From the NCBI GenBank assembly GCA_005790605.1, contig SXUI01000040.1:16941-80940 (forward strand): a stretch of DNA of 64,000 nucleotides, given 5' to 3'. Position 1 is the first letter of the stretch. Every line of letters starts with the position of its first letter. The DNA comes from Planctomycetia bacterium. Its GTDB lineage: Bacteria > Planctomycetota > Phycisphaerae > Phycisphaerales > SM1A02. Under the pieces are notes generated by a model. That model saw nothing but the letters and a program-made list of their open reading frames with translations, did no database searches and was not told the origin of the DNA. The position numbers were made by a program, and so were the translations under genes. This document shows positions 7,602 through 52,715 of the stretch, piece by piece.

Positions 7602-7674
7602 TCCCCTGTAGCTCAATTGGTAGAGCGGGCGGCTGTTAACCGCCAGGTTACTGGTTCAAGTCCAGTCGGGGGAG
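7602..7674 (+). tRNA. tRNA-Asn (anticodon GTT)
   Basis: Cloverleaf folded by hand. Acceptor tcccctg/cggggga (one G-U). D stem gctc/gagc. Anticodon stem ggcgg/ccgcc with loop ctGTTaa. T stem ctgg/ccag with loop ttcaagt. Discriminator G. No encoded CCA. Confidence 0.85.
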
Positions 7675-7677
7675 TTC
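7656..7677. repeat. attL-like direct repeat: 22-bp tRNA-Asn 3' end (tcaagtccagtcgggggagttc)
   Basis: Identical 22-mer recurs at 52694-52715. The expected chance frequency of an exact 22-mer repeat in 64 kb is about 1e-4. Confidence 0.7.
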
Positions 7678-7678
7678 A

Positions 7679-7715
7679 ACCGGTCGACCTCACACGAGGC
7701 CGACCGGTTTGTTTA
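7679..7715 (+). terminator. hairpin (accggtcg...cgaccggt) followed by T-rich tract downstream of the tRNA
   Basis: Perfect 8-bp inverted repeat with a 13-nt loop followed by 'ttgttt'. Intrinsic-terminator-like. Confidence 0.4.
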
Positions 7716-8302
7716 GAGGGTGACGCGAGAGAAACGGCCTCGTTGCGCGGTGTGACGAGGGTTTCGCGCTCTCGCGTTTGTAGTAAGCGTGATGGGTCCC
7801 GATCGAAACGGTGGTGAAATTGGCGAAAACTCGCCGCGATCTCACGCGCTCTCTGAATTGGTTTACAGCCTTCGGAGATCGGGGGTCTATCGAAACGACT
7901 CGCATTGCCCTGACAGCCTGCGACCACCGGCAGATGTAGCAAGGAGTGGTCGCACTCACTTGCGGCCTCACAACTTGAGGTAACCAGCATGCCACACGAC
8001 CAGCGCTCCGCGATTTCCCCGCGGGCGGCGATGCCACTCGCACCACTCCCAACTGCGGACGCCCTCGTCAATGAGATCGCTTCGCTGCTCGGCGCGGGTA
8101 TCGCGCGCGTCGTCGAAGCCAACGCGGTGAAGGACGCGGAGCAAGTCGTGGCATTCGCCCCGTGCATGGAACTTGCCATCAACCGCGCCTCATGGCTCAC
8201 TGTGCGGAGGAGCGACCGCGAGTGCGGCGAGTCCAACGAGAGAGCACGCACACGAGCACGCACATGATCACAACCATCGACAGACATGCGACCACCGATT
8301 CG

Positions 8303-8815
8303 ATGCCGATCGCGCAGCGCCTCGCTGACCTCGAGCGCATGACTGCGACACAACTTCGAGTTCGCCACGCCGAGGTCTTTGGAGAGAAGTCGAGATCAGG
8401 AAATCGCCAGTGGCTCTTTCGCCGCATTGCGTGGCGGATTCAATTCGACGCCGAAGGAAGCTTCGCGCAGAGAGCCGACGACCAAGCTCGTGCGCTCGCG
8501 AAGCAATACGCCTTTGATAGCGACATCCGATTCCGGCCACCGAAGACGCCACCGGCAGTCGAACTCGCTGAGCCAACTGTGACCATGCATGTTTCAGCGC
8601 CGCGCGACGGCAGGCTTCCGCCGCCGGGCAGTGTCATCGTGCGCAAATTCAAGGGCGGCGACCACCGCGTCACAGTCATGCCGTCGGGGTTTGACTACGA
8701 CGGCGGCCACTACAAGTCGCTCAGCGCGGTCGCACATGCGATCACCGGAAGCCACTGGAACGGAATGCTGTTCTTCGGCCTCAGCAGCCGCGCGAAGCAA
8801 GGACTTGCGACATGA
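8303..8815 (+). CDS. DUF2924-family protein (recombinase-associated)
   Basis: N-terminal 'IAQRLADLERMTATQLRVRHAEVFGEKSRSGNRQWLFRRIAWRIQ' matches the conserved DUF2924 start. Its stop overlaps the recombinase ATG (ATGA). Upstream in-frame starts at 8162 and 8264 are possible. Confidence 0.6.
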   Translation: MPIAQRLADLERMTATQLRVRHAEVFGEKSRSGNRQWLFRRIAWRIQFDAEGSFAQRADDQARALAKQYAFDSDIRFRPPKTPPAVELAEPTVTMHVSAPRDGRLPPPGSVIVRKFKGGDHRVTVMPSGFDYDGGHYKSLSAVAHAITGSHWNGMLFFGLSSRAKQGLAT

Positions 8816-10371
8816 GCAAGGCGAACGCTGAACCCAAGCGCGTCGTTCGATGCGCGATCTACACGCGCAAGTCAAGCGACGACGGCCTCGAACTCGACTT
8901 CAACAGCCTCGATGCGCAGCGCGAGTCAGCGGAGGCGTTCATTGCAAGTCAGCGCGGCGACGGCTGGCAAGTGATCACGACGCGCTACGACGACGGCGGA
9001 TTCTCCGGCGGCACCATGGAGCGCCCCGCGCTCGAAGCGCTTCTTGAAGACATTCGTGCGGGACTCGTCGACTGCGTGGTCGTCTACAAGGTGGATCGGC
9101 TGAGCAGATCCCTTCTTGACTTCACGAAGATCATCGGCACGTTTGACGCGCACCATGTCGCGTTCGTATCGGTGACTCAGCACTTCAACACCACGCACTC
9201 GATGGGCCGATTGACGCTGAACATCCTCCTTTCGTTCGCGCAGTTCGAGCGGGAGATCATCAGTGAACGGACCCGCGACAAGATCGCTGCCTCGCGCAAG
9301 AAGGGCATTTGGGGCGGAGGACGACCAATTCTCGGCTACGACATCGAGCGAAGCCCGGGAGGCAGTCGGCTCCTGGCCAACGAGATCGAGGCAGAGCGTG
9401 TCCGCTCCATCTTCAGCATGTACCTCGAGCTCGGTTCGATGTCGCAAGTATTGCGTCAACTTGATGAACTCGGTTGGCAGAACAAACAGTGGCTCGGCAA
9501 GGACGGTCGCGTCATGGGAGGGCGGACATTCAACAAGTCGCAGCTCTTCTGCCTCCTGACGAACCCCGGCTATATCGGGAAAATCCGCCACAAAGACAAT
9601 CTCTTCGACGGCCTGCATGAAGCGATCGTCCCTGCGGATCTGTTCAGCAAGGTGTCGACTGCCTTACGAGAGAACCGAACCAACGATGGTCGGGGCGCCA
9701 ACAACAGCCGTTGTGCACTGCTGCGCGGACTCGTGCGTTGCAAGGCTTGTGGTTGCGCAATGACGCACCACTTCACCGCCTCGAAGGGGAAGTCGTCGGC
9801 CAAGCGCGAGTACCGCTACTACGTCTGCACTCGCGCGCAGAAGCGCGGTTGGAACTGCTGCCCAGCACCATCCCTTCCCGCCGAAGAACTCGAACACTTT
9901 GTGGTAGCGCAGATCCGCGCTGTGGGAAGCGACAACGCCACGACGGCGGCGGCCGTCCGCGCGGCGCAGGTGCGACTCAAAGCGCGGTCGCAAGAGCTCA
10001 GGGAAGCGAGCGCAGTTGAGGTTGCGAGGATTGCCACTTTCACCGCCGAGGCACGCCAACTCCATGAAGCGGAACCGACGCCCGCGCAAGACGCGGCGCT
10101 TGCGGCGCTTCGCGAAAACATTCGGCTTGCGAAGGCGCGCATGGCGCGGCTTGAAGCACAAGCAACCGCGATCGACGCTCGGCTGCTCGATCGCGACGAA
10201 CTCACGGGCGTGATCGAGGCGTTCGACCCGCTGTGGGAGGCGCTTCGCTTTGAGGAGCGTGAGCGGCTGGTGCGAATTCTCATCAAGTCAATCGAATACG
10301 ACGCCAGTTGCGAGAGCGTGAGCATCTCGTTTCGATCAAGTGATGCGCCAGCGGCGACGGAGGCGGCATGA
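8812..10371 (+). CDS. large serine recombinase (phage integrase type)
   Basis: Resolvase catalytic domain with the 'YTRKSSDD' serine nucleophile motif and 'VVYKVDRLSRS'. Recombinase domain. Zinc ribbon 'CKACGCAMTHH...YRYYVC'. C-terminal coiled coil. Confidence 0.9.
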   Translation: MSKANAEPKRVVRCAIYTRKSSDDGLELDFNSLDAQRESAEAFIASQRGDGWQVITTRYDDGGFSGGTMERPALEALLEDIRAGLVDCVVVYKVDRLSRSLLDFTKIIGTFDAHHVAFVSVTQHFNTTHSMGRLTLNILLSFAQFEREIISERTRDKIAASRKKGIWGGGRPILGYDIERSPGGSRLLANEIEAERVRSIFSMYLELGSMSQVLRQLDELGWQNKQWLGKDGRVMGGRTFNKSQLFCLLTNPGYIGKIRHKDNLFDGLHEAIVPADLFSKVSTALRENRTNDGRGANNSRCALLRGLVRCKACGCAMTHHFTASKGKSSAKREYRYYVCTRAQKRGWNCCPAPSLPAEELEHFVVAQIRAVGSDNATTAAAVRAAQVRLKARSQELREASAVEVARIATFTAEARQLHEAEPTPAQDAALAALRENIRLAKARMARLEAQATAIDARLLDRDELTGVIEAFDPLWEALRFEERERLVRILIKSIEYDASCESVSISFRSSDAPAATEAA

Positions 10372-10775
10372 ACACTTTGACGGTCACCAAGCAGATCCAC
10401 TTCACAACGCACAACCGCGGACGCAAACAAGTCGTCGTTGGTGTACGACCAACACCGATCGACACGCCCGATGGACGCGTGCCGCGACTCATGCGTTTGA
10501 TGGCGCTTGCGTATCGGCTTGACGGGCTGATCGAGTCTGGCGCGATCACCGACCAGGCGCAGGCAGCGATGATGGGCCATGTGACCCGTGCGAGGGTCAC
10601 GCAGATCCTCAGCCTAATGCGCCTCGCGCCCGACATCCGCCTGGCAATCCTGCAACTCCAGAGGACGAAACTGGGTCGGGACCGGATCGCTGAGAGGCAG
10701 GTGCGCGCGCTCACCCTGATCGTCGACTGGGAGGAGCAGCGGAAGGGTTGGATGACGATTTCAAAGCAGCGCTGA
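10368..10775 (+). CDS. small HTH protein (ParB/KorB-like HTH segment)
   Basis: 'GHVTRARVTQILSLMRLAPDIRLAILQL' resembles the ParB-type HTH. Start overlaps the recombinase stop. Confidence 0.4.
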   Translation: MNTLTVTKQIHFTTHNRGRKQVVVGVRPTPIDTPDGRVPRLMRLMALAYRLDGLIESGAITDQAQAAMMGHVTRARVTQILSLMRLAPDIRLAILQLQRTKLGRDRIAERQVRALTLIVDWEEQRKGWMTISKQR

Positions 10776-10933: not shown

Positions 10934-12106
10934 ATGCCGCGAAAGCAGCTGAATCGGATCGCCACACCTGAATCGCTCTCCCAGATCGACCCGCTGTTTC
11001 TCGCCGAACTTCTCCACGGGCACCCCGAGTTTCTTGATCGGCATGGAGTCTCCTGTGTCGCGCCACTCTCCCAACGCGACATCACGCGGCTGAGCGAGAT
11101 CCTCATCGATCCCACGCATAACGCGCCGGCTCCCCTCATCGATGCGTTCCTGCACATCGAGGAGATGGCTGACGATGACGCGATGTTGAAGTTGCTTGAA
11201 GCGCTCGAGAGCCGTGGAATCGACCTTGGACTTCCGCCCAATGCGACCCCCGCCGATGTCGCGACGCGGACTTGGCTTCGATACCCAGAGGTCATCGAGC
11301 GAGCGCATGTCGAGCACCGTGTTTGGAAAGCGCAGTCGTTCGGCATCTTTCTGCGCGCCGAGGGGAAAGCGCTTCCTTCTATCTCTCATCTCGATGATCT
11401 GGTTAGCGCGCTCGAGAACGCGCTGAGGCAGCACCATGCAAAGAGCCGCCGAGGCAGTGCGTGCGAGTTGTTCAAGTTCAACGATGGCGAACTGCTGACC
11501 ATCGCCGTCCGCAGGGGAGGCACCTATCGCCGCGAGAGCTGCATTGCCAACGGCGAGCCGAGCACAATCCAATACCAGCCGATCAAGTACGACTTCATCA
11601 CCATCGACCTCGCCACTTGGGAACTGCGGATGACCCGCGGCAGCAAGCGAGACACTGTCGCCTACCGGCGCGCCGTCGGAGAGAATCTTGCGGGCGACCC
11701 GGATTTCTTCAATCCGAATCAACCGAAGTACGACCTCTCTCGGATCATGCGCGACCGGCGCGGATGCGTGATGTCTACAGACCTGATCGGAATCGCGAGC
11801 GTCGATCTGGTCGAGATCGAAGTCGACTACAACGACGGAATCTCAAGCCGCGATACCAAGAAATCGGCTGACCTCTTCCGCGCGTTCGATACGCAGCACT
11901 TCCAACTTGCGCTGGGAGCAAGGATCACAAAGGCGCGATTCGCGTTCACGTTCGATGACGCACCGAACAAAAAGCGGACTGCCGATGTCTCGATCTGGAA
12001 CCGCCTGCGCTGCACACGCAGCAGCGATTCCGCCCTCGTGAACGAGTTCCTGCTCAAGCGCGGATTCGTGGTGGATGTCGACCATGTCGCCCTGGCAAGC
12101 GCTTGA
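10934..12106 (+). CDS. hypothetical protein (early region, unknown function)
   Basis: 391-aa ORF with a good RBS (AAGAACGGAGCAGTCATG). No recognisable domain. Overlaps the next gene by 32 nt. Confidence 0.4.
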   Translation: MPRKQLNRIATPESLSQIDPLFLAELLHGHPEFLDRHGVSCVAPLSQRDITRLSEILIDPTHNAPAPLIDAFLHIEEMADDDAMLKLLEALESRGIDLGLPPNATPADVATRTWLRYPEVIERAHVEHRVWKAQSFGIFLRAEGKALPSISHLDDLVSALENALRQHHAKSRRGSACELFKFNDGELLTIAVRRGGTYRRESCIANGEPSTIQYQPIKYDFITIDLATWELRMTRGSKRDTVAYRRAVGENLAGDPDFFNPNQPKYDLSRIMRDRRGCVMSTDLIGIASVDLVEIEVDYNDGISSRDTKKSADLFRAFDTQHFQLALGARITKARFAFTFDDAPNKKRTADVSIWNRLRCTRSSDSALVNEFLLKRGFVVDVDHVALASA

Positions 12107-13115
12107 CCAGATTCACGGATGGCGAGCCACCGATAGTGAGTGGCGTCGGGTACTCGCAGACGCGTATCCGGCGATTCAACCACTTCTCGTCACGGAGGAC
12201 GCGTACGCCACAGAGATCCTGATCGAGCCGGAGCGCCGACCGCGAATCATCGTCATGCATTCGAAGTCCGACATCGTCGCGATCAGCCGTGACACCGATG
12301 AGTCCCTGCCGTTGCGTCTTGAGGATGTCGTCCTGCGCGCACTGCGTCCCAAGCGTCTGTGCGACGAGATCTCCAAGCATCTGCGCCTTGGGAAGCCTGA
12401 CGACGACTGGTTGCATGGCGGGTCTGCATGGAGGCTTGGAGAGTTCATCCCATACGAGGGCGAGCGATTCCCAACCTATTTGGTGCCGGGTCACTCCGCG
12501 GCGCTGCGGTGCCAAGCCATCAAGGCGATCGCCGGTTGCATTAAGTCTCCGTTTGTCGTGGTCGTGCTGCACGCGGGCAACGCTTGCGATCAGCTGTGCG
12601 AGGTCGCAACTCGGTGTAAGGCCGGAGTCGTGGTAGTCGAGCACGCCATGCGTCTCCTCGATGGCATGGCTGCAAGGGCTCCGCATGAATCGTTTCGCGA
12701 GCAACTTGACACCTTCGTGCAAGACCACGTCCGGCCGACAGATCACATGGAGGTTGGCCAGCTTCGGTTCCCGACGCCCCCCGGATCAAAGTGGTCGGAG
12801 GTGAAAATGAGATTCCTCGACAATGAAACCGTGACGGTCAGTTGCAAGGGCGTGCAGCGGAAGCTCCGCTACGACCAGCTTGGCTTCACAGACGGACGCA
12901 ACGGCAAGCCCGACACCCAGTGGGCGCTACTCCGCGTATTCGCCAATGACGGCGGCGCGATCACGTGGCGATCAGAAGGGGCGAGGCAGGAAAGGCGCAA
13001 GCAGGTGCAGCGCCTCAACGATCGACTGCGTGAGTTCTTCCTCATCGAGGGGGCGCCGATCGCCCACGACGATGAGATCGGAGGCTGGCGGACGCCGATC
13101 GATCTCCAACAGTGA
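12075..13115 (+). CDS. hypothetical protein (early region, unknown function)
   Basis: 346-aa ORF apparently translationally coupled to the upstream gene. No recognisable domain. Confidence 0.4.
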   Translation: MSTMSPWQALDQIHGWRATDSEWRRVLADAYPAIQPLLVTEDAYATEILIEPERRPRIIVMHSKSDIVAISRDTDESLPLRLEDVVLRALRPKRLCDEISKHLRLGKPDDDWLHGGSAWRLGEFIPYEGERFPTYLVPGHSAALRCQAIKAIAGCIKSPFVVVVLHAGNACDQLCEVATRCKAGVVVVEHAMRLLDGMAARAPHESFREQLDTFVQDHVRPTDHMEVGQLRFPTPPGSKWSEVKMRFLDNETVTVSCKGVQRKLRYDQLGFTDGRNGKPDTQWALLRVFANDGGAITWRSEGARQERRKQVQRLNDRLREFFLIEGAPIAHDDEIGGWRTPIDLQQ

Positions 13116-13355
13116 AGCCAAGCCAGTGACAACTCCGTAGAAACCGACGAACTCGGCAACATTTTCTTGCCATCACAACCGCCTGCGGGACAAGCCATTG
13201 CGCTTCTCCGCGGGCGGTTTGCTTTGGCGTCGGCGGACATGTCGCCAGAGGCGGTTGACAGGTCCGGCCTTACCGCCACCTCGCGCGCCTCGCAGGACAA
13301 CCACGCGCCGGTCCTGTCGCCTCGAGGCGACGCAGCAGCACGACAGAACCGCACC

Positions 13356-13916
13356 ATGAGCCACCCAACTGAATCGAACCATCGACCCACGAACTACCAC
13401 ATCATCGACGACTTCGCCTGCGCGCGAGTCCGCTTCAACGCGAGACGCATTGCCCGATGGCTGAGCCTCAATCAGACTGCGCGCGAGGACCTCGCTCAGA
13501 ACATATTCCTTGCGCTCTGTAAGGCCGCGCCGAGTTTCGATCCCACCGTAGCGAGCAGTCGCACATTCGTCTCCCGCGTCATTCATCAAGCCGCCCTTCA
13601 TGAGTTCCGCACGATGAAGCGGGCAACCGCTTGCGCCGTGCGCAACCCAAGGCTGCTGACCGACTGCACCGAAGAGTCCTTTGAGCTCATCGCGTGCCCC
13701 ACCTCGTTCGGCTACGCGCGCTACGAACTTCGCGCAGATGTTTCCCTGCGAATCCGCGCGCTGCCATCGCGAACCGCGCTGGTGGCAAGGCATCTCATGC
13801 ATTCGACGCAGGCGCAGGCCGCGAGGGCGCTCGGAATCTCGCGTCAAGCGGTCCACGCGCACGTCGCAGCGTTGCGCAACACCAGGCCGTTGTTGCTTCT
13901 TCACGCTGATTTCTGA
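13356..13916 (+). CDS. ECF-type sigma-70 family factor-like protein
   Basis: Region-2-like 'EDLAQNIFLALCKAAPSFDPTVASSRTFVSRVIHQAALHEFR' and region-4 HTH 'TQAQAARALGISRQAVHAHVAALR'. Start is the internal Met of ORF 13167-13916. Confidence 0.5.
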   Translation: MSHPTESNHRPTNYHIIDDFACARVRFNARRIARWLSLNQTAREDLAQNIFLALCKAAPSFDPTVASSRTFVSRVIHQAALHEFRTMKRATACAVRNPRLLTDCTEESFELIACPTSFGYARYELRADVSLRIRALPSRTALVARHLMHSTQAQAARALGISRQAVHAHVAALRNTRPLLLLHADF

Positions 13917-13958
13917 GAGCGACCTGACACGAGCGCGCGAGCGGCAGATGTAGCAAGT

Positions 13959-14885
13959 ATGGGCCCACCAGCAAACCACGGCGACCCACGCATTGTGCCG
14001 CTCGTGCCGCTCGGGCAGCGCGGCTGCCACGCTGAGATCTTTCCAAAGCACACCAACATGAACGACCCTGCCACGAGCGATTCCTTCAACCTCCGCTCGC
14101 TTCTGCGCGAGCCCGTGGACACCTATCACGCCAAAGCGAAGGACCATCTTTCGTCGCACGCGCTTGCGGAGTTTCGGCGTTGCCCGCTGCTCTTTCGTAA
14201 AAAGGAACTCGGGCTCATTCCCTCGAGGGACTCGCATGCGTTCGTCGTTGGTCGTGCTGCGCATGTGCTGATTCTCGAGGGTCGCGAGCGCTACGAAGCT
14301 GAGTTCGCAGTTGGTGGCCCCATCAACACGAAGACCGGTTTGCCATTTGGCTCCGCGACCAAGGCGTTCATGGAGTGGGCCACGCAGCGCGGACGACCAG
14401 TGCTCGCCGACGACGACGCGGCGACGGTTGAAGAGATGGCGGCGAGCGTGACGAGTCACGCCGTCGCGAACGCGCTGCTTGCCGACGGAGTTGCTGAAGG
14501 AGTCGTGCGCGCCAAGTACGCGGGTCACGCCTCTCAGGCTCGCATTGATTGGATCAACCCCGCGGGTGGCGCTGGCATCGTCGACCTCAAGACCTGCGAT
14601 CGCATGGACTCCTTTGAGTTTGACGCGCGCGCCTTCAACTACATCCATCAACTCGCGTTCTATCGCGCTGTGCTTGAAGTGGCGACTGATGTTGCGCTTC
14701 CTGTCCACATCATCGCCGTTGAGAAGCGCGAACCCTTTCGTAGCGGCGTCTGGCACATCGCGCCCGCAGTGCTCGACGCCGCGAAAAGGGAGAACGAAGC
14801 GGCGATGGCGTCACTCTCCGAATGTCGCGCGAGCGGCATCTGGCCCACCGGCTTCGAAGCCATGCGGCAGTTCGACCACAACTGA
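13959..14885 (+). CDS. PD-(D/E)XK nuclease (phage recombination exonuclease / Cas4-like family)
   Basis: 'GIVDLKT' (D-x-K) and 'QLAFYRAV' (QxxxY) RecB-nuclease motifs. Sits beside the Sak4/DUF669 recombination genes. Confidence 0.6.
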   Translation: MGPPANHGDPRIVPLVPLGQRGCHAEIFPKHTNMNDPATSDSFNLRSLLREPVDTYHAKAKDHLSSHALAEFRRCPLLFRKKELGLIPSRDSHAFVVGRAAHVLILEGRERYEAEFAVGGPINTKTGLPFGSATKAFMEWATQRGRPVLADDDAATVEEMAASVTSHAVANALLADGVAEGVVRAKYAGHASQARIDWINPAGGAGIVDLKTCDRMDSFEFDARAFNYIHQLAFYRAVLEVATDVALPVHIIAVEKREPFRSGVWHIAPAVLDAAKRENEAAMASLSECRASGIWPTGFEAMRQFDHN

Positions 14886-14925
14886 CTCGCATTCACCCAT
14901 CCATTCACCACACACAAAGGAACCT

Positions 14926-15699
14926 ATGAAACTGATGAAACACATCACGCGCGGCGTCTCGTCGCCGCCTCGCAGAGTCCTCGTCTACGGCACGCACGGC
15001 ATCGGCAAAACTACTTTCGGCGCGATGTCGCAGCGACCTGTCTTCATTCAAACCGAGGACGGACTCGCCGGCGTCGAAACCGACCGCTTCCCACTCGCCT
15101 CGCGCTTGGGAGAAGTCACCGCTGCGCTCGCGGAGCTGCGTGCAGAGCAACACGACTATCGCACCGTCGTGCTCGACAGCCTCGACTGGCTTGAGCGACT
15201 GATTCACAGTGAGGTCTGTCAGAAGAGAAGCGTCGAAAGCATTGAGGACATCGGCTACGGCAAGGGATATGTGTTTGCGCTGCCCCTGTGGCGCGAGGTG
15301 CTCAACACGCTCGATGCGCTGCGCAACGAGCGTGACATGGAAGTGATTCTCGTCGCGCATGCGCAGATTGAGAAGTTTGCAAATCCAGAAACTGAAACCT
15401 ACGACCGCTACGCGCCACGTCTGCAGAAGCTCGCGAGCGCGCTCGTGCAGGAGTGGTGCGACGAAGTGCTCTTTGCGACCTACCGCGTGCACACACGCAC
15501 AGCAATCGAGGGTTTTGATCGCAAGCGCGTCCAGGCGATCGGCACTGGCGAGCGCGTCCTGCGCACGAGCGAGCGACCAGCGCATGTCGCGAAGAATCGT
15601 CTCGCACTTCCTGACGAGATTGCACTCGATCACCGCGTGTTTGCGGCGTACGCGCGTGGCGAAAACCCGCAAGAGGTCGCGGAAACACAGCAACTCTGA
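14926..15699 (+). CDS. AAA_24 / Sak4-like ATPase (phage ssDNA-annealing/recombination)
   Basis: Walker A 'VLVYGTHGIGKTTFGA'. RBS AAGG 6 nt before the ATG. Sits within the longer ORF 14479-15699, which would otherwise overlap the nuclease gene. Confidence 0.65.
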   Translation: MKLMKHITRGVSSPPRRVLVYGTHGIGKTTFGAMSQRPVFIQTEDGLAGVETDRFPLASRLGEVTAALAELRAEQHDYRTVVLDSLDWLERLIHSEVCQKRSVESIEDIGYGKGYVFALPLWREVLNTLDALRNERDMEVILVAHAQIEKFANPETETYDRYAPRLQKLASALVQEWCDEVLFATYRVHTRTAIEGFDRKRVQAIGTGERVLRTSERPAHVAKNRLALPDEIALDHRVFAAYARGENPQEVAETQQL

Positions 15700-15775
15700 C
15701 ACGCAGCAGTGCCGCGCACACGCACCACTCATTCCCACTCCCTACTCCCACTCCTTACTAAGGACATCCAACCAC

Positions 15776-16228
15776 ATGGCAAGTCTCAACTTCAACGCCC
15801 ACGACATCAAGCCCACCGCTTCACTTGACCCCATCCCTGCCGGCAAGTACCTCGCCGCGATCGTCGAGAGCACCACAAAGCCAACTAAGAACGGCACTGG
15901 CGAATACCTCGAAATCGTGCTCGAAATCCTTGAAGGTCCATACAAGGGACGCCGTCTTTGGGAGCGCCTCACGCTCAAGCACCACAACGATGTGGTGGTG
16001 CGCATCGCGAGCGCAACTCTGTCGGCCATCTGTCATGCCGTTGCGGTGATGACGCTGCGCGACTCGCACGAACTGCATGACATCCCGATGACAATCACGG
16101 TCGCACTTCGCAAACGCGATGACAACGGCGAGATGGTCAATGCGGTGAAGAGTTTCAACAAGCGCGAGCCGACCGCGTCCGCGCCGCGCACACCGTTGTC
16201 TCACGGAGGCGCGCCCTGGAAGCGCTAG
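15776..16228 (+). CDS. DUF669-like phage protein (putative SSB-like, partner of Sak4)
   Basis: 'DIKPTASLDPIPAGKYLAAIVESTTKPTKNGTGEYLEIVLEIL' resembles DUF669. The DUF669-Sak4 pairing is conserved in phages. Confidence 0.5.
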   Translation: MASLNFNAHDIKPTASLDPIPAGKYLAAIVESTTKPTKNGTGEYLEIVLEILEGPYKGRRLWERLTLKHHNDVVVRIASATLSAICHAVAVMTLRDSHELHDIPMTITVALRKRDDNGEMVNAVKSFNKREPTASAPRTPLSHGGAPWKR

Positions 16229-20421: not shown

Positions 20422-20439
20422 CCCTGACGGAGATAGTTC

Positions 20440-20600: not shown

Positions 20601-20852
20601 CTCCCCAAGTAGGTACTCCCGGGCGCTCGCAAGCCTCGTGTGGCCCGTTGGAGGAGCAGACCTTCGCGAGTGAGTTTGTTTCGCGTGGGTGGCGCACCTC
20701 ACCTCTGGCCCACCGAGGCCGCCACGCTTCCCGACGACGCGCTCATCGAGTTCGCGCGGGCCACGGCGCCGCTCACGCACTGCACGCGGCAGAAGCCCTC
20801 GTGGCGGCTTTGTGCGCGTCGCGCATTCAGTCCACCAACGAAGGAGCATGTC

Positions 20853-40775: not shown

Positions 40776-40776
40776 A

Positions 40777-43843: not shown

Positions 43844-43845
43844 GT

Positions 43846-45090
43846 TTATGAGGAGGCCAGCTTGCCGCGCCGCCGAACGCTACCCGTATTGATTGGATCC
43901 GGCAGCTCGGTCAGGGAATCAACATCCGATCCTCGAGTGCTCAAAGCCGCGATGTAGGACTGTGCGCTAGTGCACCCGCGCATCAGCGATTGATAATCCG
44001 ATTTTGGAGCGGTTACATATTCGAGAGTCTCCCCGTTCTCACCTGCAACGAGCGCTGGTAAATCGCCGAGGGCCTCAAGGACGGAGATCGGTGTGCCGCC
44101 AAAGAGGCCGTTCGTCAGTGGTCCGTGAGGCAATTGAAACGCCGCACGCTTCCTGAATCCAACAATGATGATTCGCTTCCGACGCTGCGGCACGCCATAC
44201 TCCTCGGCGGATACGCGCCAGACCACTATCTCCCTAGCGACGGAACGAAGCGCCTGACTGACGCGCTCGAAGACCCGACCTGATTCCATGTTGATCAGGC
44301 CCGTCACATTCTCGAACAAGAAGGCGTCGGGATCGACCGCCTCGACGATCCGACAGTAGTCATTGAAGAGCAGATTGCGTTCATCTGCCTCGCTACGACG
44401 ATTCCCCGCGGTCGAGAACCCCTGGCATGGAGGTCCTCCAACGAGAACCTTCGGCACTCGCGAATCGCCGGAGGCTGCCAACTCGACGATCCTGTTTCGG
44501 ATGTCCTCTTCTCGAACATCGCCAACCACAACATTTGGGTGGATGTTCCGCACGAATGTCTTCATGGCGTGTTCGTCGATATCTGATGCCACCAAGCTCT
44601 TCCAACCAGCCCAGTGGAATCCGAGTGAGAGCCCACCTGCACCCGCGAACAAGTCGACGAGATTCCCGGGGCGCCCGAACGAGGTGGCCAACCAATACGC
44701 AAGGAGCGGCGGTACCGCGTTCCCGATCTGCTTTGATACAGCGGTGAGCGGTCCGGTGAAAACGAAGCTGTCAGGGAAACTCTGCAGGCGGGCCGCTTCG
44801 CGGTAGGAGAGCGTGCGAAGTTGCGCCCACTCGTAATGCAAGTGGCAACCGTTCCCGGGTCGACCAACGTAGGTAGAGATCGTGTACGAGGGCTGCGACG
44901 GATGCAGCCTCCCGTAATAGGTTGAACGACTTCCCTCGCCTCGCGCGTAACTCTCGCGGATCTGCTTCAGTCGCTGAGAAGGCACGGACTCGGGAATGTC
45001 CTTCCAGTTACCGCCTGGCGGAACAGCCCGCGCAAACTGCAGATCGAGTGCGCTAAGTTTCGGCGCAATATGATTCCGAATCATCACCAC
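43846..45090 (-). CDS. DNA (cytosine-5)-methyltransferase, circularly permuted motif order
   Basis: Motif I 'DLFAGAGGLSLGF', IV 'GGPPCQGFSTAG', VI 'FLFENV'. Motif IX/X-like 'LSYREAARLQSFPDSFVFTG' lies N-terminal to motif I. Confidence 0.85.
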   Translation of the reverse strand: MVMIRNHIAPKLSALDLQFARAVPPGGNWKDIPESVPSQRLKQIRESYARGEGSRSTYYGRLHPSQPSYTISTYVGRPGNGCHLHYEWAQLRTLSYREAARLQSFPDSFVFTGPLTAVSKQIGNAVPPLLAYWLATSFGRPGNLVDLFAGAGGLSLGFHWAGWKSLVASDIDEHAMKTFVRNIHPNVVVGDVREEDIRNRIVELAASGDSRVPKVLVGGPPCQGFSTAGNRRSEADERNLLFNDYCRIVEAVDPDAFLFENVTGLINMESGRVFERVSQALRSVAREIVVWRVSAEEYGVPQRRKRIIIVGFRKRAAFQLPHGPLTNGLFGGTPISVLEALGDLPALVAGENGETLEYVTAPKSDYQSLMRGCTSAQSYIAALSTRGSDVDSLTELPDPINTGSVRRRGKLASS

Positions 45091-46685
45091 AATTCCTTGT
45101 AAAGAAGGGCGTCTCGCTCTTCCGCTCTCAGTTTCGGGAAAGCCGGCAGCACGCTGGCAAAGGCGTCGCGATCGAGTCCGTACGCGCGCGCCACGGCCAC
45201 CTCAAGCCCTGGAAGTTCGATAGAGGAGTTCAACCGCCTATCGAGCATCAGCAACAGCCGTTCGCGCTCGGGCGACTCGAGCAGAAGAGTTAGAGGTGCG
45301 GCGCACCGTCGCAGCACCCCCTGCGAAACATGCGTTGTCGCGAGCTTGGTTCGAACCTGAAGCTCAAAAACCAAGCTGTTCATGACGGCGAGCAAAGCCG
45401 AAAGGGCTTTCGCGTCACCAGTTCGAAGAAACGCGATTCCAAGTGAGTTGCCCGTCACATTCCTTGGCGGCACGAAGGCGACGTGCATTCGCCTGCGCTG
45501 GGTGGGACGCGAGACATCGCGCCATGCAATCCTTCGCTCCAACACAGTTGCGGGAATCTGACGCTTAGTCGGATCGATGTAGTCGATGGATTCTCGCTTG
45601 ACCTGGAATGGGAACACATGCCGCCCCTTCAAAAAGGGGATGCCACCAACGACAGATCCAAATGACTCAGCCAAGCGTGTCTCGTCGAGCTCTCTTCCGA
45701 GCCGCAAGCCGATGCGTAGATCCTCTTCTAGCATTGAGAGCGATGCGTGTTGGCCGCAAATCAACCGAACGATCTCCTCCGCATCTCCTGCTACATTGAG
45801 TGCCAAGGGATCACTCAAACTCGAACGGAGGATATGTTCGCGCGACTCAACCTGATTGCGCGCAGCATCGAAGCGCGTGAGCTGAAAGCAACGCGTTGGT
45901 CCGCCTTCCCGCGCTGCCAAGGTTACGAACGCCTGGTCGACCGAGTCGAAAAACTTTGCTTCCGCGGGGTAGTACTCGATTCCGCTCACATCTAGCCTCT
46001 GGAACAAGCTTGCTCTGAAGGGCGATGAAGCTTGGTCGGCGAAGATCGCTGCCGGCAGAACTATGTACATCGCAGCGCTTGCCCGAAGCAGCCGCGCAGA
46101 CGCGATGGCGCCCGCGCGCGCCAGATTTACCCCGTACCCCGTGACCGCCTTGCCTGATGCACTCTTGCAGCCTGGGAACTCACGATCGAGCCACTCGGCA
46201 TATCCCCGCAGTGACTGCCTGTACTCGCCGGGTAACTCCACAGCGTCGCGCGAGTCCGGCTTGAGGAGTTCCCAAGGAGGATTGGTCAGCAGCAAGTCAA
46301 CACTTGCCGTCTCGAGGGGAACTCTTCGGAATGTATCTCCGCTCAACGCTACGAGTCGAACTCTCGCCGAAAGCCCAAGATCCTGAAGGAGGGCACCGAT
46401 TGCGCTGCGGGCGGTGTGTACCGCTTCGGCGTCGTAGTCAAAAACTCGGACCTCCGACAGACGTTCAATCGCGTTCTGATCGATCGCAGCTCGTCGCAGC
46501 CAAGCGACTACCAGCCTCCCGTCGCCACAAAATGGATCGCAGACGCACTGGGGCTGAAATCCCGACGCGACTGCTCTTGCGGCAAGCGCCCCCGCTATCT
46601 CGAGAGGCGTGTAAAAGCGACCGGTCAGCCGCGCCTCAATGTCAACTCGACTCGACGAGCGCTTCGCGATCTCAACATGCAGCAT
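45084..46685 (-). CDS. N6-adenine DNA methyltransferase (gamma class, NPPW)
   Basis: Motif I 'VCDPFCGDGRL' precedes motif IV 'LLTNPPWELL'. Confidence 0.8.
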   Translation of the reverse strand: MLHVEIAKRSSSRVDIEARLTGRFYTPLEIAGALAARAVASGFQPQCVCDPFCGDGRLVVAWLRRAAIDQNAIERLSEVRVFDYDAEAVHTARSAIGALLQDLGLSARVRLVALSGDTFRRVPLETASVDLLLTNPPWELLKPDSRDAVELPGEYRQSLRGYAEWLDREFPGCKSASGKAVTGYGVNLARAGAIASARLLRASAAMYIVLPAAIFADQASSPFRASLFQRLDVSGIEYYPAEAKFFDSVDQAFVTLAAREGGPTRCFQLTRFDAARNQVESREHILRSSLSDPLALNVAGDAEEIVRLICGQHASLSMLEEDLRIGLRLGRELDETRLAESFGSVVGGIPFLKGRHVFPFQVKRESIDYIDPTKRQIPATVLERRIAWRDVSRPTQRRRMHVAFVPPRNVTGNSLGIAFLRTGDAKALSALLAVMNSLVFELQVRTKLATTHVSQGVLRRCAAPLTLLLESPERERLLLMLDRRLNSSIELPGLEVAVARAYGLDRDAFASVLPAFPKLRAEERDALLYKELW

Positions 46686-47412
46686 ACTTCACCCCTCGAA
46701 CCAACCGAGACACCATTTCGTCTGGCACAAGAGGCGCATTTTGACATTGAACGACCGCTCGCCGAATCACGGCTCGAACCACCCCGACGGAGCGAAGGTT
46801 CGCGTTCGAGCCAAATCGAATTGCCGGCCCTTGATTCGCTACAGCATTCTCGTTTCTGATCACGCGTGCGAGTGACTCCCCGTCCAATGAGAATGCAAGC
46901 CAGTCACTCGAAGTGGGAGCCGCTCCCTCATCGATCATGAGCCTGTCACCGGGCTGCAGACAAAGGTCAGACTCGCACGACGCCGAAAGGCACCAAAGTA
47001 CGGCTATTCCGCCGCCTGGTAGCAGTTCCGCAAACCACTTCGCACCGGCTTCCGACCGGTCATGAGGGGATTGAGCAACGCCGACCTGGCGCTCGCAGAG
47101 ATCCGGGCACGCACTCGACAGCACCTGCAGGCCGCGGAACCGCCGAGCAGCGAGTCGCACGTAGCCCTTCCGTTCGAGTGCTTTGAGGTGGTCACGAACC
47201 GTGGCGGTCGATCGGAAGCCCAACTCGGCCTGCAACTCGCGGTAGGTCGGTGGAAGATCGCCGCGCAGCGAGCAAACCCGCAGCACTCGAAGCACGCGAA
47301 GCTGGGCTGGGGTAAGCGGGCTCAAGGTGGCGCTACCGTACCACTCATTTGAGTGCCCCGCAAGCGTTGCCTCCGTCGTGGCCGCTCGAACATTGTCCGC
47401 ACATGCTGACAT
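46672..47412 (-). CDS. LexA/CI-like transcriptional regulator (wHTH + S24-peptidase-like C-terminal domain, catalytic residues unclear)
   Basis: 'LTPAQLRVLRVLRVCSLRGDLPPTYRELQAELGFRSTATVRDHLKALERKGYV' is a LexA-type wHTH. The C-terminus aligns with LexA's beta domain but Ser/Lys are not evident. Start chosen at an internal Met (ORF runs to 47652). Overlaps the m6A MTase start by 14 nt. Confidence 0.55.
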   Translation of the reverse strand: MSACADNVRAATTEATLAGHSNEWYGSATLSPLTPAQLRVLRVLRVCSLRGDLPPTYRELQAELGFRSTATVRDHLKALERKGYVRLAARRFRGLQVLSSACPDLCERQVGVAQSPHDRSEAGAKWFAELLPGGGIAVLWCLSASCESDLCLQPGDRLMIDEGAAPTSSDWLAFSLDGESLARVIRNENAVANQGPAIRFGSNANLRSVGVVRAVIRRAVVQCQNAPLVPDEMVSRLVRGVKYAAC

Positions 47413-47434
47413 ACTGCGGCCGACGAGCAAGCAC

Positions 47435-48163
47435 ACTATGCCGGACTGCGACTCACCTCCCGAACACGACTCAAGCGACATCACCGCGAACTCGGCAGGA
47501 TCTCCTTGGACTCCGGTACGGTTCCAACTGTTGGAGTGGTTTCGCCAAGATGCGCCGTCGCTCGCTGGAGCGTACGAAGCAACTGTCTTTCTCGTTTCCA
47601 CTCCATCAGTTCCGGCGCGGGTCCATTTAGTCTGCCACCTTGTGCGCGACATCTACGGCAAGCTTCCAGAGATCCTTGACGGGGAGTTTCGTTTCCAGAG
47701 TGCCGGTGCTGTCTACCCACCATTCATCGATACGATCGCCAACCATTGGAGATCACCCGATGGCGCCCTGTTAACCAACGCCGCAGCTTCCGAAACCGCG
47801 CCGAGCGCGTCCGACCGCGTTAACGTTCCGAGAGCGGCTGCTCGCGCGGTAGACGACCTCCTCGCTCGACGAGCGGTGCTCAAAGATCAGCCCCGCAGCA
47901 CGGAGGTCCTTGCTCGAGCGCTATTCAGACGCTTCGCCGAATCTGGGCTTCAACCACCTGCTCGCCTGGCCGCCACGTTCGAGGAGGAGAGGAGATGGTT
48001 CACCGACCGTGCGCACCTGGTACTTGAGCGCGCCAAAGTACCTGCTGAGGAAGGGCTGCTCGATCATTTCGCCTCATTCGAGGGTGCGCTCCATTCGCTC
48101 GTCGGCGAGTACTTCACAGGGAAGGAGGAGCTGGATGCAATCCTCGCACAAGCCAACGCCTGA
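47435..48163 (+). CDS. hypothetical protein (first gene of divergent operon)
   Basis: Start at the internal Met of ORF 47327-48163. No recognisable domain. Confidence 0.35.
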   Translation, partial: TMPDCDSPPEHDSSDITANSAGSPWTPVRFQLLEWFRQDAPSLAGAYEATVFLVSTPSVPARVHLVCHLVRDIYGKLPEILDGEFRFQSAGAVYPPFIDTIANHWRSPDGALLTNAAASETAPSASDRVNVPRAAARAVDDLLARRAVLKDQPRSTEVLARALFRRFAESGLQPPARLAATFEEERRWFTDRAHLVLERAKVPAEEGLLDHFASFEGALHSLVGEYFTGKEELDAILAQANA

Positions 48164-50993
48164 GCAGGTTATGGCAGCGGTCGCGCGGATCACCGCGCCT
48201 CATCTCGAGCGCTACTTTTTCGAGAGGCTCGAAAACCCCGCATGGATCGAGCCCCTGCACGCGCACGGCTTCTTCAAGGATCCGCCCGCTCCCGAGCGAA
48301 TGGACGGCGGAGTGCGCTGCAGACTCTGGCCTCAGTCGGCGTATCTCGCACGCATGGCGCCGAGTGCGCCCGAGGCGGTCGCGACGATTCTCGGCACGCT
48401 CGAGACGAGCAACTGGATGGTTGTGCGCGACATGCTAGTGGCCGCGAGCCAACTGCCCTCGCCGCTCGTTCGATCACTCGTGCCTAACCTCGGCGACGCC
48501 GTTCGCTCGCATCGACTTTGGCATTCACTCGACACCCTCGGCGCAATCGTCGCAAACTTGGCGCACGACAATCACTCTGAGGTCGCTATCGACTTGATGA
48601 TCCGCGGGTTCGGAGGTGTTGTTGAGCGAGACGAGCAGACCCTTCGACAGGCGTCATATCCATTCTTCGAGGCGCTGACTGAGTCCGTGGTGCCCGCGCT
48701 GGCGCGATCCGCTCCGCTCCCGCTACTTGAGGTGTTGCTGCGATGGGTTCGCTCCGCAGCTTCCAAGGAGCACCCCTCGCGGGCTGATGGCGATGAACTG
48801 TCATACATCTGGCGACCAGCGATCGAGGAACACGAACAAAATCGGGACCACGATTTCGCAGGTCGGCTGCTGGGAGTTGTGCGCGATGTGTCGGAGCGCG
48901 CCATTCGCGATGCTGGCCTCGGCGTCAGCGCTCTTCTCGACGTACTCCGACCCGATGGTTCGGTCATCGGTCAACGCCTTGCCCTGCACCTCATCGGAGA
49001 GTTTAGCGAGAGGGAGCATGGCTTGACAGAATCAATGATGCTCAACCACAGGCTGTTTGCAGACCATCGTGTCAAGCACGAGTACGCACGGCTGATGGCG
49101 CGAAGATTCTCTCTGCTCAATCCCGACCAGCAGTCTCAGTGGTTCTCATGGGTCGTCGCTGGGCCACCTGATGATTCCGCCGCGGACCCCGCGAGCCGCT
49201 CCCAGTATGTTGCCTATTGGAAGTTCTGCCGGCTGCACTGGATCTGGGAGCACCTGACAGGTGCGCACCGCGCCTTCTACGAGAAGATGTTGACGGAACA
49301 CGGCGTTCCGGAGTTGGCGGATCTCAATATTCACTTCGGCGGGGTTCAGTCAGTCGTTGAGCTTTCCCCGTTCACAGTCGAGGAGCTTGCGGCAAGAGGC
49401 TTTGCCCCGGCGATCGAACACGCCCGAAGCTGGCGTCCAGAACCATGGTACCGTCGGTTTGATGCGCCTTGCATTGAAGGGTTCGCCAACACATTTCAGC
49501 AGTATGTCGCAACCGCGCCCGACCGCTTCTCTCGCGGTGCAACAATTCTCATCGGCCTCTCCGCGCCGTTCATTCGAGCGTTCCTACGCGCCATGATGGA
49601 CGCGATCAAGCGCGGCACGCGAGTTGATATCGTGAGCATCCTGACACTCTGCCACTGGGTGCTCTCGCGCCCGGTCGCGGAACGAACCTCGCCCAACGGC
49701 GAGTGCGAGCCCTTGCTAGATAAGGACTGGCAATGGTGTCGAGAGACAATCGGAGAACTGGCGGCGGCTGTGTGTGGAGCGCGCACCGATTCCCGACCGA
49801 CCTACGGGGTCGAACTGCGAGAATCTCTCTGGACCTCGATAGAACCGCTCCTTTGCGACAAGGCTGACTCGCACATCGTCCAACAGCAGGCCTGCATCGA
49901 TCCACGTGTGTCTGATTGGACGCTTCTTTCGGTCAATTCGCCGCGCGGGAAGGTGATGGCGGCCATTTGGGCGTACGCGGACTGGCTGGCGTGGCATCTC
50001 GATCCTGCACGCAAGGACCACACCAAGTTTGCTGGGACACTCGATCAGATGCCTGAAGTGCGGTCTGCGCTAGAGCGGCAGCTCACCGATGAATCAGCCG
50101 GGTTCACGGGACGTGCCGGATTCGGGATCCGGCTGGGTCTACTCTGGTGGATCGACACAGACTGGTTGGCCAGACATGCGTCAGTGATTTTCGATCTGCG
50201 CGCCTTCGAGATTGAACCGCAGCGGGCGTTCGGTTGGGCTGCTTGGAATACGTTCTTGTTCTCGAATCGGCCACACGTCGAGCTGTACAAGGTGCTTCGG
50301 GACCAGTTCGGTTACGCCGTTGATCAGGCCGCTCGCTGCGACCAAGTTGGTGACTCGAGGGAAGGGCCGTACTTCCATCTTGGCCAGCACTTGATGACGC
50401 TCTACGGTCGCGGAGACTTCGGATCTGACGCGGAAACGGCATGGGAAGCCGACCAAGGAGTCATCCGACGCCTCGTCACCCAGGCTCAATGGGCAATCCG
50501 CAGCTACGCGATCGAGTTTGTCGGAATCAGCCTGAATGATTCCGGCGGCAAGGTTCCCGACGAGGTGAGAGAGAGATTTGTCGGGCTCTGGGAGCGATAT
50601 TGGGCACAGGCCGGTTCCACTGATGCGCGCGCCGATCCGAACAGCGGCGTCTTTGGTTGGTGGTTCTGCTCGGGCGTGTTCGATCCGGCTTGGTCGATTC
50701 AACAGCTTGAGAGCTTCGTCGCACGCTGTCCAAAGGCCGAGCCCGATCATCTGATCGTGGAGCGCCTGGCAGCGACGGCGGAAGCCGATCCGCTGCGCGC
50801 AGCCAAAATCGTGGACATGCTTGTCGCAGGAGATAACGAAGGCTGGCGCGTTCGAGGATGGGCCGCCGACGCCAAGAAGGTGCTGGCGATTGCCCTCAAG
50901 GCAGGAGGTGAGGCGCGTGGGGCCGCCAAAGCCGCAATCGACAGACTTGGAAAGCACGGCCACAACGACTTCGGAGCCTTGCTGAAGGCTTGA
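48135..50993 (+). CDS. large hypothetical protein (953 aa, Trp/Arg-rich, predicted alpha-helical)
   Basis: Strong RBS (GAAGGAGGAG) 5 nt before the ATG. Overlaps the upstream gene by 29 nt. No recognisable enzymatic motif. Confidence 0.5.
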   Translation: MQSSHKPTPEQVMAAVARITAPHLERYFFERLENPAWIEPLHAHGFFKDPPAPERMDGGVRCRLWPQSAYLARMAPSAPEAVATILGTLETSNWMVVRDMLVAASQLPSPLVRSLVPNLGDAVRSHRLWHSLDTLGAIVANLAHDNHSEVAIDLMIRGFGGVVERDEQTLRQASYPFFEALTESVVPALARSAPLPLLEVLLRWVRSAASKEHPSRADGDELSYIWRPAIEEHEQNRDHDFAGRLLGVVRDVSERAIRDAGLGVSALLDVLRPDGSVIGQRLALHLIGEFSEREHGLTESMMLNHRLFADHRVKHEYARLMARRFSLLNPDQQSQWFSWVVAGPPDDSAADPASRSQYVAYWKFCRLHWIWEHLTGAHRAFYEKMLTEHGVPELADLNIHFGGVQSVVELSPFTVEELAARGFAPAIEHARSWRPEPWYRRFDAPCIEGFANTFQQYVATAPDRFSRGATILIGLSAPFIRAFLRAMMDAIKRGTRVDIVSILTLCHWVLSRPVAERTSPNGECEPLLDKDWQWCRETIGELAAAVCGARTDSRPTYGVELRESLWTSIEPLLCDKADSHIVQQQACIDPRVSDWTLLSVNSPRGKVMAAIWAYADWLAWHLDPARKDHTKFAGTLDQMPEVRSALERQLTDESAGFTGRAGFGIRLGLLWWIDTDWLARHASVIFDLRAFEIEPQRAFGWAAWNTFLFSNRPHVELYKVLRDQFGYAVDQAARCDQVGDSREGPYFHLGQHLMTLYGRGDFGSDAETAWEADQGVIRRLVTQAQWAIRSYAIEFVGISLNDSGGKVPDEVRERFVGLWERYWAQAGSTDARADPNSGVFGWWFCSGVFDPAWSIQQLESFVARCPKAEPDHLIVERLAATAEADPLRAAKIVDMLVAGDNEGWRVRGWAADAKKVLAIALKAGGEARGAAKAAIDRLGKHGHNDFGALLKA

Positions 50994-51455: not shown

Positions 51456-51489
51456 TTGGTGCCCTTACGATCATGATAGAATACGCTGT

Positions 51490-52086
51490 ATGGAAAAACG
51501 AGATCGACTCCTGCGCCTGGACGGTGGTCCAAATGAGGCCCGCCAATTCTTCTCAGAGCGAAACATTTCACATATCCATGAAACCAAGAGCCTAATCATC
51601 TTCGGGTGGACTTGCGAACCGAGGGACAATCCCGCAATTGGGGCGCGAGGGTATGAGTGCGCGAGATCTCTTCCGTCGGTGGACCATGCCACGGCCTGTA
51701 TCGCTGGCGACTACCTCATGGACTGTCATGTTGCGGCCCAGTTGTTGGAGAACCGGCAACGACCAGGACTGCTCTTCCCGGATCGCATTGAACTGTACAT
51801 GGGTGACTCAAGACTCGCAATTGCCCAGCGGATGGTTGTGCTCAGTCGCGTCGACGGTCAATCTGGTTGGATGCCGATCGCAGATGAGATTCGCAATTTC
51901 TTCGCGCAGATCGCGCCAGACGTTGGGCCAGCATTCGCCGCAACCGCTCGTGTTTTTGACGCGACGTTAAGGATGGTGCGGGCCGTCCGAGAGATTGAGA
52001 AATTGAAGAGCGAGGCTCGCCCCACCGATGGCAACCACCACAAGTACTGGACTCGCCAGGAGATTGATCGCCCGAGAGCGCAGTAG
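51490..52086 (+). CDS. hypothetical protein
   Basis: 198-aa ORF preceded by -10-like 'tagaat'. No recognisable domain. Confidence 0.4.
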   Translation: MEKRDRLLRLDGGPNEARQFFSERNISHIHETKSLIIFGWTCEPRDNPAIGARGYECARSLPSVDHATACIAGDYLMDCHVAAQLLENRQRPGLLFPDRIELYMGDSRLAIAQRMVVLSRVDGQSGWMPIADEIRNFFAQIAPDVGPAFAATARVFDATLRMVRAVREIEKLKSEARPTDGNHHKYWTRQEIDRPRAQ

Positions 52087-52151
52087 TTGGCTGAGCTTGC
52101 CCGACTTTCGTAGACACCCATTGAGGCGAGGCTACTCGCCAGGAGTGTTCC

Positions 52152-52352
52152 ATGGGCAAGCCCTCAAAGACCGTCAAGAAGCGACTGCGCCGCACCTTCA
52201 CGCCCGAGTTCAAGGCTGAGGCCGTTCGCCTCTGCAAAACCGGCGATCGCGGCCTCGGCAAGTCGCTGCCGATCTCGACCTGATCGAAAGTTCTCCGCGT
52301 GACCGCACGTGTTTCGCCGCCATCGGAAGTCGCACGGCGACCTCATGCAACG
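52152..52352 (+). pseudogene. IS3-family transposase OrfA remnant (frameshifted/truncated)
   Basis: 'MGKPSKTVKKRLRRTFTPEFKAEAVRLCKTGDRGLGKS*', then in another frame 'QVAADLDLIESSPRD', matching the IS3/IS911 OrfA N-terminus. Disrupted after ~43 codons. Confidence 0.55.
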
Positions 52353-52693
52353 ATTAACCCTCGGCACCCATCGAGTTTCGCTCCCGTTTCGATCAGGATC
52401 GCACTCCTCGGCATCGAAAGAAACGGTCCTCACCGCTCTGGCGCGCTCAAAACGCCATCCAAAGTTTGATCCCGTTTCGATCGGGGAGTTCCTCGAAGAC
52501 CGCGTTGGCGCTGCTGCGCCCGCGGTCTTCTCGTATCACTCCCCCGCGTGTGGGAAGTCCGCTTCGCAGACTTCACACACCGCGTCATGCGGACATGCAA
52601 TCGAAGCTCGCGCCCGAAACGAAGACCAACGCACTCATGTCCACATGACGCTCTTGACATTGCGGCTCGCACCGCAAAGAGCGGTGCAAGGCG

Positions 52694-52715
52694 TCAAGTC
52701 CAGTCGGGGGAGTTC
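52694..52715. repeat. attR-like direct repeat of the tRNA-Asn 3' end
   Basis: Exact copy of tRNA positions 7656-7677, with no surrounding tRNA structure. Confidence 0.7.

Follow-up and report, generated by a model that had tools for sequence, protein, structure and literature searches.

In textbooks, a tRNA target combined with a long identity block points to a tyrosine integrase. In the tRNA elements that such enzymes integrate (P4, P22, HP1, and similar elements), an intact tRNA gene lies at one end, a repeat of its 3′ segment lies at the other, and the element supplies the displaced 3′ end; Williams reportedly divided tRNA-integrating elements into sublocation classes in 2002. Classical serine integrases have bacterial attachment sites (attB) in protein-coding genes or intergenic DNA that share only 2 to 12 bp with the phage attachment site (attP), and their presumed mechanism involves short attachment (att) sites and a 2-bp staggered crossover. 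To our knowledge, neither DUF2924 proteins nor small-subunit partners have been described for these classical enzymes. The element described here, found in a 64-kb stretch of contig SXUI01000040.1 (the window, meaning the whole stretch that was analyzed), has the layout of the tyrosine-integrase tRNA elements, but their defining recombinase is absent from it. We judge it likely that the element is a 45-kb temperate siphovirus-like phage that inserted at the 3′ end of a tRNA-Asn(GTT) gene by means of its own large serine recombinase (LSR), with the left and right junctions (attL and attR) at positions 7656 to 7677 and 52694 to 52715. Viewed simply as a tRNA-associated prophage, the element is ordinary; its novelty is the serine-integrase module.

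Serine-integrase insertion at the 3′ ends of tRNA or transfer-messenger RNA (tmRNA) genes, together t(m)RNA genes, has scattered precedents, but we did not find it described as characteristic of a family. Among annotated phages, Acidithiobacillus phage AcaML1 (JX507079) is the closest; it encodes the same three-gene module (Gp4, Gp3, and Gp2). AcaML1 Gp3, annotated as “recombinase large subunit,” shares 47% identity with the LSR over the catalytic, recombinase, and zinc-ribbon domains, and Gp2, annotated as “site specific recombinase small subunit,” is homologous to the 135-aa protein of the module in the window. AcaML1 is reported to be integrated at the 3′ end of the tmRNA gene srrA between 10-bp direct repeats (PMC3826726), whereas the target here is tRNA-Asn and the repeats are 22 bp. 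The AcaML1 record begins with CCACCA followed by a phage-borne hairpin and a T-run, which is the same design of a tRNA-like end plus terminator that is found in the window. The literature describes AcaML1 as a myovirus; it is 59 kb long and its host is an acidophilic proteobacterium, in contrast to the siphovirus-like element described here. The second precedent is Paracoccus phage vB_PamS_Pami6, a siphovirus-type prophage that is listed as having a serine recombinase and a tRNA-Met(CAT) site (PMC6536676). Pami6 differs in its tRNA and its alphaproteobacterial host.

The serine recombinases of Wolbachia phage WO are homologous to the LSR (∼41 to 43% identity). WO integration sites lie in protein-coding or repeat loci and are not known from tRNA genes. 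A DUF2924 gene is found directly upstream of the recombinase in WO (PMC10299305). The integrases of phiC31, Bxb1, TP901-1, and A118 have the same domain architecture and catalytic motif as the LSR, but identity is only ∼25 to 28%. According to surveys, the sites of serine integrases lie outside tRNA genes and have very short cores (PMC10654092), and a large LSR survey defined targets solely by disrupted protein genes and never mentioned tRNA (PMC10083194). LSR surveys that recognize a target by the disruption of a protein-coding gene would miss tRNA sites.

ARAGORN calls a single tRNA in the window, the tRNA-Asn(GTT) gene at 7601 to 7675 on the plus strand, in which CCA is not encoded. The 22-mer TCAAGTCCAGTCGGGGGAGTTC is present in two exact copies, at attL and attR, spaced 45,038 bp from start to start. 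Its first 19 bases run from the T-loop of tRNA-Asn to the discriminator base, and its last three (TTC) lie just beyond the mature end. There is no further match to TCAAGTCCAGTCGGGGGAGTTC on either strand of the window even with three mismatches, and its 15-nt core has no third close copy inside the element when up to 3 of the 15 nt may differ. Other long direct repeats that match exactly are absent from the window. The earlier note on this DNA had reported that the 22-mer recurs exactly and without tRNA structure at the second copy, and both statements hold. The chance expectation for a second copy is 0 in 100 dinucleotide-preserving shuffles with up to 3 mismatches, and neither ARAGORN nor a permissive Rfam scan of positions 52500 to 52900 (E values up to 10) found a tRNA-like structure around 52694. 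That interval was also where a second, degenerate tRNA copy was looked for, the finding that the earlier note had named as fatal to its proposal, and none was seen. Leftward of the second copy, the DNA bears no relation to the tRNA. A chance match, or a remnant of a second tRNA-Asn gene in place of an att site, is refuted by the shuffles, none of which gave a second match even with 3 mismatches, and by the Rfam scan, and we give it practically no weight. The attR junction is identical in two independent assemblies, both of which are occupied. In the Logan assemblies of SRR8894379 and SRR8894382, the contigs end at the same point (52500 to 52525), ∼170 to 190 bp to the left of attR; this shared break may reflect a strain variant or a repeat common to another genome in the samples.

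The recombinase named in the earlier note is present, 1.1 kb from attL, and is of a different type from the tyrosine integrase that a tRNA gene with a long repeat would normally imply. It is the second gene of a module of three adjacent genes, each overlapping the next by 4 bp, that encode a DUF2924 protein, the LSR, and a small subunit. In the window, 1.14 kb separate the end of the tRNA from the start of the LSR gene. The catalytic domain of the LSR (PF00239, 1.1e−39) has a DRLSR motif in its translation, and its motif YTRKS21 aligns with the nucleophile Ser12 of TP901-1 integrase (PDB 3bvp). This domain is followed by PF07508 and PF13408, the C-terminal part matches the DNA-binding domains of A118 integrase (PDB 4kis), and the PDB matches of the LSR include the TP901-1, A118, and phiC31 integrases. 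Residues ∼370 to 480, a possible counterpart of the coiled-coil motif that governs directionality in serine integrases, look helical, as judged by eye only. A sequence search of the PDB with DUF2924 and the small subunit gave no informative match. DUF2924 is said to hold a RAMA DNA-binding domain (PMC11342252). The small subunit is helix-turn-helix-like, and the two partner proteins might act in site recognition or directionality. The LSR is the only recombinase in the element; a Pfam scan of every sizeable open reading frame (ORF) of the element found no tyrosine-recombinase domain (PF00589).

The link between this module and tRNA genes is also seen among its relatives. About 110 LSR homologs with 45 to 84% identity were collected from viral and metagenome contigs. 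A complete tRNA gene on the same strand lies upstream of the LSR gene in 21 loci, tRNA-Asn(GTT) in 5 and tRNA-Met(CAT) in 16. The order in all 21 is tRNA, hairpin, DUF2924, and LSR, and the distance from tRNA end to LSR start is 1.08 to 1.44 kb in 15 of them. Only four other tRNAs were called across the related loci, none in this layout. When the 110 LSR proteins were clustered by average linkage, Asn and Met targets never fell into the same cluster: one cluster adjoins one kind of tRNA-Met, two clusters adjoin another kind, and three clusters, among them the one with the LSR of the window, adjoin tRNA-Asn. These related elements, rather than an empty site, support the assignment of the two repeats as attL and attR of a prophage that the earlier note had proposed.

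The same data bear on the possibility that insertion was the work of a tyrosine integrase, now lost or acting in trans, with the LSR serving another role such as resolution or inversion. An identity block as long as 22 bp that begins in the T-loop is what is classically expected of tyrosine-integrase elements at tRNA genes, and surveys place tyrosine integrases at tRNA sites and serine integrases elsewhere (PMC10654092). However, no Phage_integrase domain occurs in the scanned ORFs of the element or between tRNA and LSR in the relatives; the larger of these gaps (2.5 to 4.3 kb) contain DprA, a helicase, a phospholipase D (PLD) family nuclease, or other cargo and no tyrosine integrase. The LSR clusters covary with tRNA identity, the LSR has the full architecture of an integrase and not that of a small resolvase or invertase, and AcaML1 and Pami6 provide precedents. 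Because the LSR clade is linked to tRNA identity across the family, we regard a lost tyrosine integrase as very improbable and conclude that the LSR most likely performed the integration.

Contigs of an unintegrated type suggest where the LSR may act. Hairpin, DUF2924, and LSR are arranged in them as in the integrated forms, but the match to the tRNA 3′ end on the left side of the hairpin is limited to ∼8 to 12 bp and the remainder is unrelated. The Asn-type attP-like forms (L032, L080, L085, and L076) have only ∼8 to 11 bp in common with the tRNA, and in the Met-type unintegrated forms (L043 and L051), which have a non-tRNA left arm, only gcCCCCGCTA is shared. In one tRNA-Met subclade, that of the LSR of L043 and L051, LSRs that are 98 to 100% identical adjoin tRNA-Met genes with four different T-stems, yet the phage-side arm is identical. 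The T-stem in this subclade is therefore host DNA, which places the crossover in or just after the 3′ acceptor strand.

By analogy, the LSR in the window would pair a short attP with an attB in which the 3′ end of tRNA-Asn is followed by the host DNA that today begins at 52716, cut both sites at a 2-bp staggered crossover inside the 22-bp block, rotate, and religate. The most likely place for the crossover would be the final ∼11 bp, CGGGGGAGTTC, which comprise the acceptor 3′ strand, the discriminator base, and +3. The phage arm would thus supply the portion of the tRNA 3′ of the crossover together with a replacement terminator hairpin, leaving the tRNA intact and functional, and the original tRNA 3′ end and its downstream sequence would remain at attR. 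A hairpin is found at the position equivalent to 7678 to 7715 in all related attL and attP forms; the one in the window is probably a substitute for the terminator that the tRNA gene had in the host. Folding reveals this hairpin after attL, though it was missed by a consensus terminator scan; on the host side of attR, the hairpin lacks significance (z = −0.7).

Junctions before integration and after excision were reconstructed by joining 7610 to 7677 with 52716 to 52760 (attB) and 52650 to 52715 with 7678 to 7720 (attP). The predicted attB junction is ...CCAGGTTACTGGT-TCAAGTCCAGTCGGGGGAGTTC-GGAAACCGCAATGG, and the predicted attP junction is ...GAGCGGTGCAAGGCG-TCAAGTCCAGTCGGGGGAGTTC-AACCGGTCGACCTC. 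The exact empty-junction pattern had 0 matches in metagenome contigs, and the 22-mer had 0 matches in viral contigs. A search of genome contigs with the flanking CotH gene returned only relatives of 38 to 56% identity, mostly in Planctomycetota metagenome-assembled genomes (MAGs), none with a tRNA-Asn gene nearby. The best of these relatives, at 45 to 56% identity, are from Planctomycetota MAGs, which makes an uncultured planctomycete the probable host. All contigs with flank genes (ERZ27257032 k141_121461, SXGT01263412.1, and those from SRR8894379/82) are occupied or end at the att site.

Several results count against integration by the LSR at these sites. No empty site, no excised form, and no attB or attP junction for this host and phage was found in the collections searched, so the element ends rest on the repeat and on analogy. 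The 22-bp identity exceeds both what a serine integrase needs and the 8 to 12 bp seen in relatives, a pattern resembling that of tyrosine integrases. A scan of the reconstructed attB and attP for dyad symmetry gave no clear center. About half of the relatives with enough upstream sequence have neither a tRNA nor a recognizable core within 6 kb of the LSR, and no further Asn-type cores were found in the tRNA-less relatives. The AcaML1 module is transcribed toward the att site, whereas the module in the window is transcribed away from attL. Finally, PHROG-based searches recognized neither a recombination directionality factor nor lysis genes among the genes of the element.

The element is a member of a populous, little-recognized lineage whose serine-integrase modules consist of three genes and are directed at the 3′ ends of t(m)RNA genes. 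On balance, we lean toward a large and almost undescribed clade of modules comprising DUF2924/RAMA, LSR, and small subunit, in which each subclade would be dedicated to one tRNA-like 3′ end: that of tRNA-Asn, of either of two kinds of tRNA-Met, or of tmRNA. Crossover would then take place within the final ∼10 bp of the acceptor strand, and the stretch of tRNA copied in attP would differ in length (∼8, 22, or possibly 45 bp). If this is correct, tRNA targeting is also a regular strategy of one serine-integrase lineage and not only a hallmark of tyrosine integrases. The result challenges the common working rule that a tRNA gene with a long repeat indicates a tyrosine integrase, and that serine integrases use protein genes and tiny cores; this rule misses a sizeable lineage of serine integrases. 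LSRs with small partners could be tested as integrases with predictable, widespread landing sites, since tRNA 3′ ends are conserved. For annotation, the gain is the exact ends of a 45.0-kb prophage with defense cargo in an uncultured host, probably a planctomycete.

The features of the element are listed in Table 1. As the earlier note had described, phage genes and a cargo block lie between the repeats and ordinary chromosomal genes lie outside them, which is confirmed by Pfam, PHROG, PADLOC, and gene calls. The left flank encodes an ABC ATPase, NAD kinase, seryl-tRNA synthetase, a CotH-family protein, and a DUF4956 protein; the right flank contains two small ORFs, a Band_7 protein, a Lut-type lactate utilization operon, a sulfatase, and a GH18/CBM2/dockerin protein. 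No sheath was found among the virion genes, and the phage is therefore described as siphovirus-like. Neither half of the element had a megablast match among 50,697 phage records.

Table 1. Features of the tRNA-Asn element, with positions in the window
Feature	Position	Strand	Evidence or remarks
tRNA-Asn(GTT), intact, host target gene; 3′ part within attL	7602-7674	+	Rfam RF00005, 68.8 bits; ARAGORN
attL core, T-loop to tRNA 3′ end plus TTC, 22-bp identity block	7656-7677	+	Exact repeat, 0 expected
Element-borne hairpin and U-rich tail directly after the tRNA (P′ arm)	7678-7715	+	13-bp stem, −22.9 kcal/mol, z = −2.8
92-aa ORF upstream of the recombinase module, no Pfam match	7989-8267	+	Gene call
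DUF2924 protein, module gene 1, AcaML1 Gp4 homolog (33% identity)	8264-8815	+	PF11149 6.5e−39; phrog_11806
LSR, 519 aa, module gene 2	8812-10371	+	Resolvase, Recombinase, Zn_ribbon_recom
135-aa “recombinase small subunit,” module gene 3	10368-10775	+	phrog_14161 “recombinase”; AcaML1 Gp2 homolog
Two genes (390 and 343 aa), no Pfam/PHROG/PADLOC match	10934-13115	+	Gene calls
Regulation/replication block: sigma-70-like, PD-(D/E)XK nuclease (DUF3799), AAA_24, DUF669, RusA	13224-22079	+	Pfam; gene calls
Regulation/replication block, further genes: DEAD/SNF2 helicase, primase-polymerase and DUF3987, ParB_N-N6/N4 methyltransferase fusion	13224-22079	+	Pfam
Four small genes, including HARE-HTH and DUF6900	22133-23452	−	Pfam
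Virion module: large terminase (gpA type), lambda-type portal, protease-major capsid fusion, cement proteins	23713-38457	+	Pfam; PHROGs
Virion module, further genes: head-tail joining, tail tube, tape measure (34637-36526), distal tail genes	23713-38457	+	Pfam; PHROGs
Moron-type genes: sialyltransferase-like, Ser/Gly-rich Hint-like, Methyltransf_24, glycosyltransferase	38866-41930	+	Pfam; PHROGs
Type IIS restriction-modification cargo: Alw26I-type endonuclease (+), C5 methyltransferase (−), N6 methyltransferase (−)	42206-46685		PF09665 1.6e−174; PF00145; PADLOC REase_II, MTase_II
LexA-type DNA-binding-domain protein, 254 aa as called	46672-47436	−	PF01726
Cargo of unknown or defense-like function: 241 aa, 952 aa Dsr1-like, 198 aa	47438-52086	+	PADLOC Dsr1 1.7e−17; gene calls
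attR core, second 22-mer; non-tRNA element DNA on left, host DNA on right	52694-52715	+	Exact repeat

The content of the right-hand part raises the question of whether the element is composite, that is, a prophage of ∼34 kb (7.7 to 42 kb) beside a separate defense island or host segment (42 to 52.7 kb), in which case the 22-mer at 52.7 kb would not be the phage end. GC content falls from ∼0.62 to 0.57 to 0.58 at 42 to 46 kb and drops again at 50 to 54 kb, the 42- to 52.7-kb segment has no phage structural or replication genes, and arrays of att cores exist in relatives, for example in locus L097. However, there is no copy of the core near 42 kb even at 3 mismatches in 15 nt, the cargo block has no second recombinase, and relatives likewise carry cargo beside attL. 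Defense cargo beside an att site is usual in prophages. A composite origin is thus unlikely, and a single prophage ending at attR is the preferred reading.

A defense island occupies the attR-proximal end of the element (42206 to 50993). Within the cargo, the 952-aa protein matches only the C-terminal part of Dsr1, and no peptidase domain was detected in the protein with the LexA DNA-binding domain. A prophage-encoded sigma-70 family protein with regions 2 and 4 (13224 to 13916) heads the replication block. The virion module contains two separate Phage_cement_2 genes (30403 to 30732 and 33583 to 34014), the second located between the tail tube region and the tape measure gene. The 354-aa protein encoded at 39711 to 40775 has no PHROG or PADLOC match; by eye only, Ser/Gly-rich low-complexity stretches flank a Hint/intein-like module (C...HN).

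Among the related loci, cargo is wedged at attL, between attL and DUF2924-LSR, in L063 (659 to 3518), L089 (2511 to 5099), L112 (3829 to 4905), and L030 (3582 to 4998). This cargo includes DprA with a phosphoribosyltransferase-like protein, an 862-aa DEAD helicase, a PLD-family nuclease, and a DUF5677 protein. Locus L097 has two copies of CCCCGCTA with an identical 38-nt hairpin (1880 to 1970 and 4830 to 4910), 2.9 kb apart, and both lie upstream of a single LSR module. A tRNA-Met 3′ fragment, which begins in the anticodon loop and lacks the 5′ half, precedes the first of them. This arrangement resembles either a series of att sites or two att copies enclosing a small satellite or remnant. In L104 (4540 to 4600), L107 (2370 to 2420), and L108 (1 to 50), a tRNA-Met 3′ fragment of ∼45 nt, from the anticodon loop to the 3′ end and without the 5′ half, abuts the phage-side hairpin, which would reflect either a long tRNA mimic in attP or insertion into a tRNA fragment at the attR of another element. 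Metagenome SXGT01, in which the window is also found, contains a second phage (L057 and L058; SXGT01418829.1 and SXGT01624084.1) whose contigs end before the att site; its LSR is 84% identical to that of the window, and its upstream DNA is ∼78% identical.

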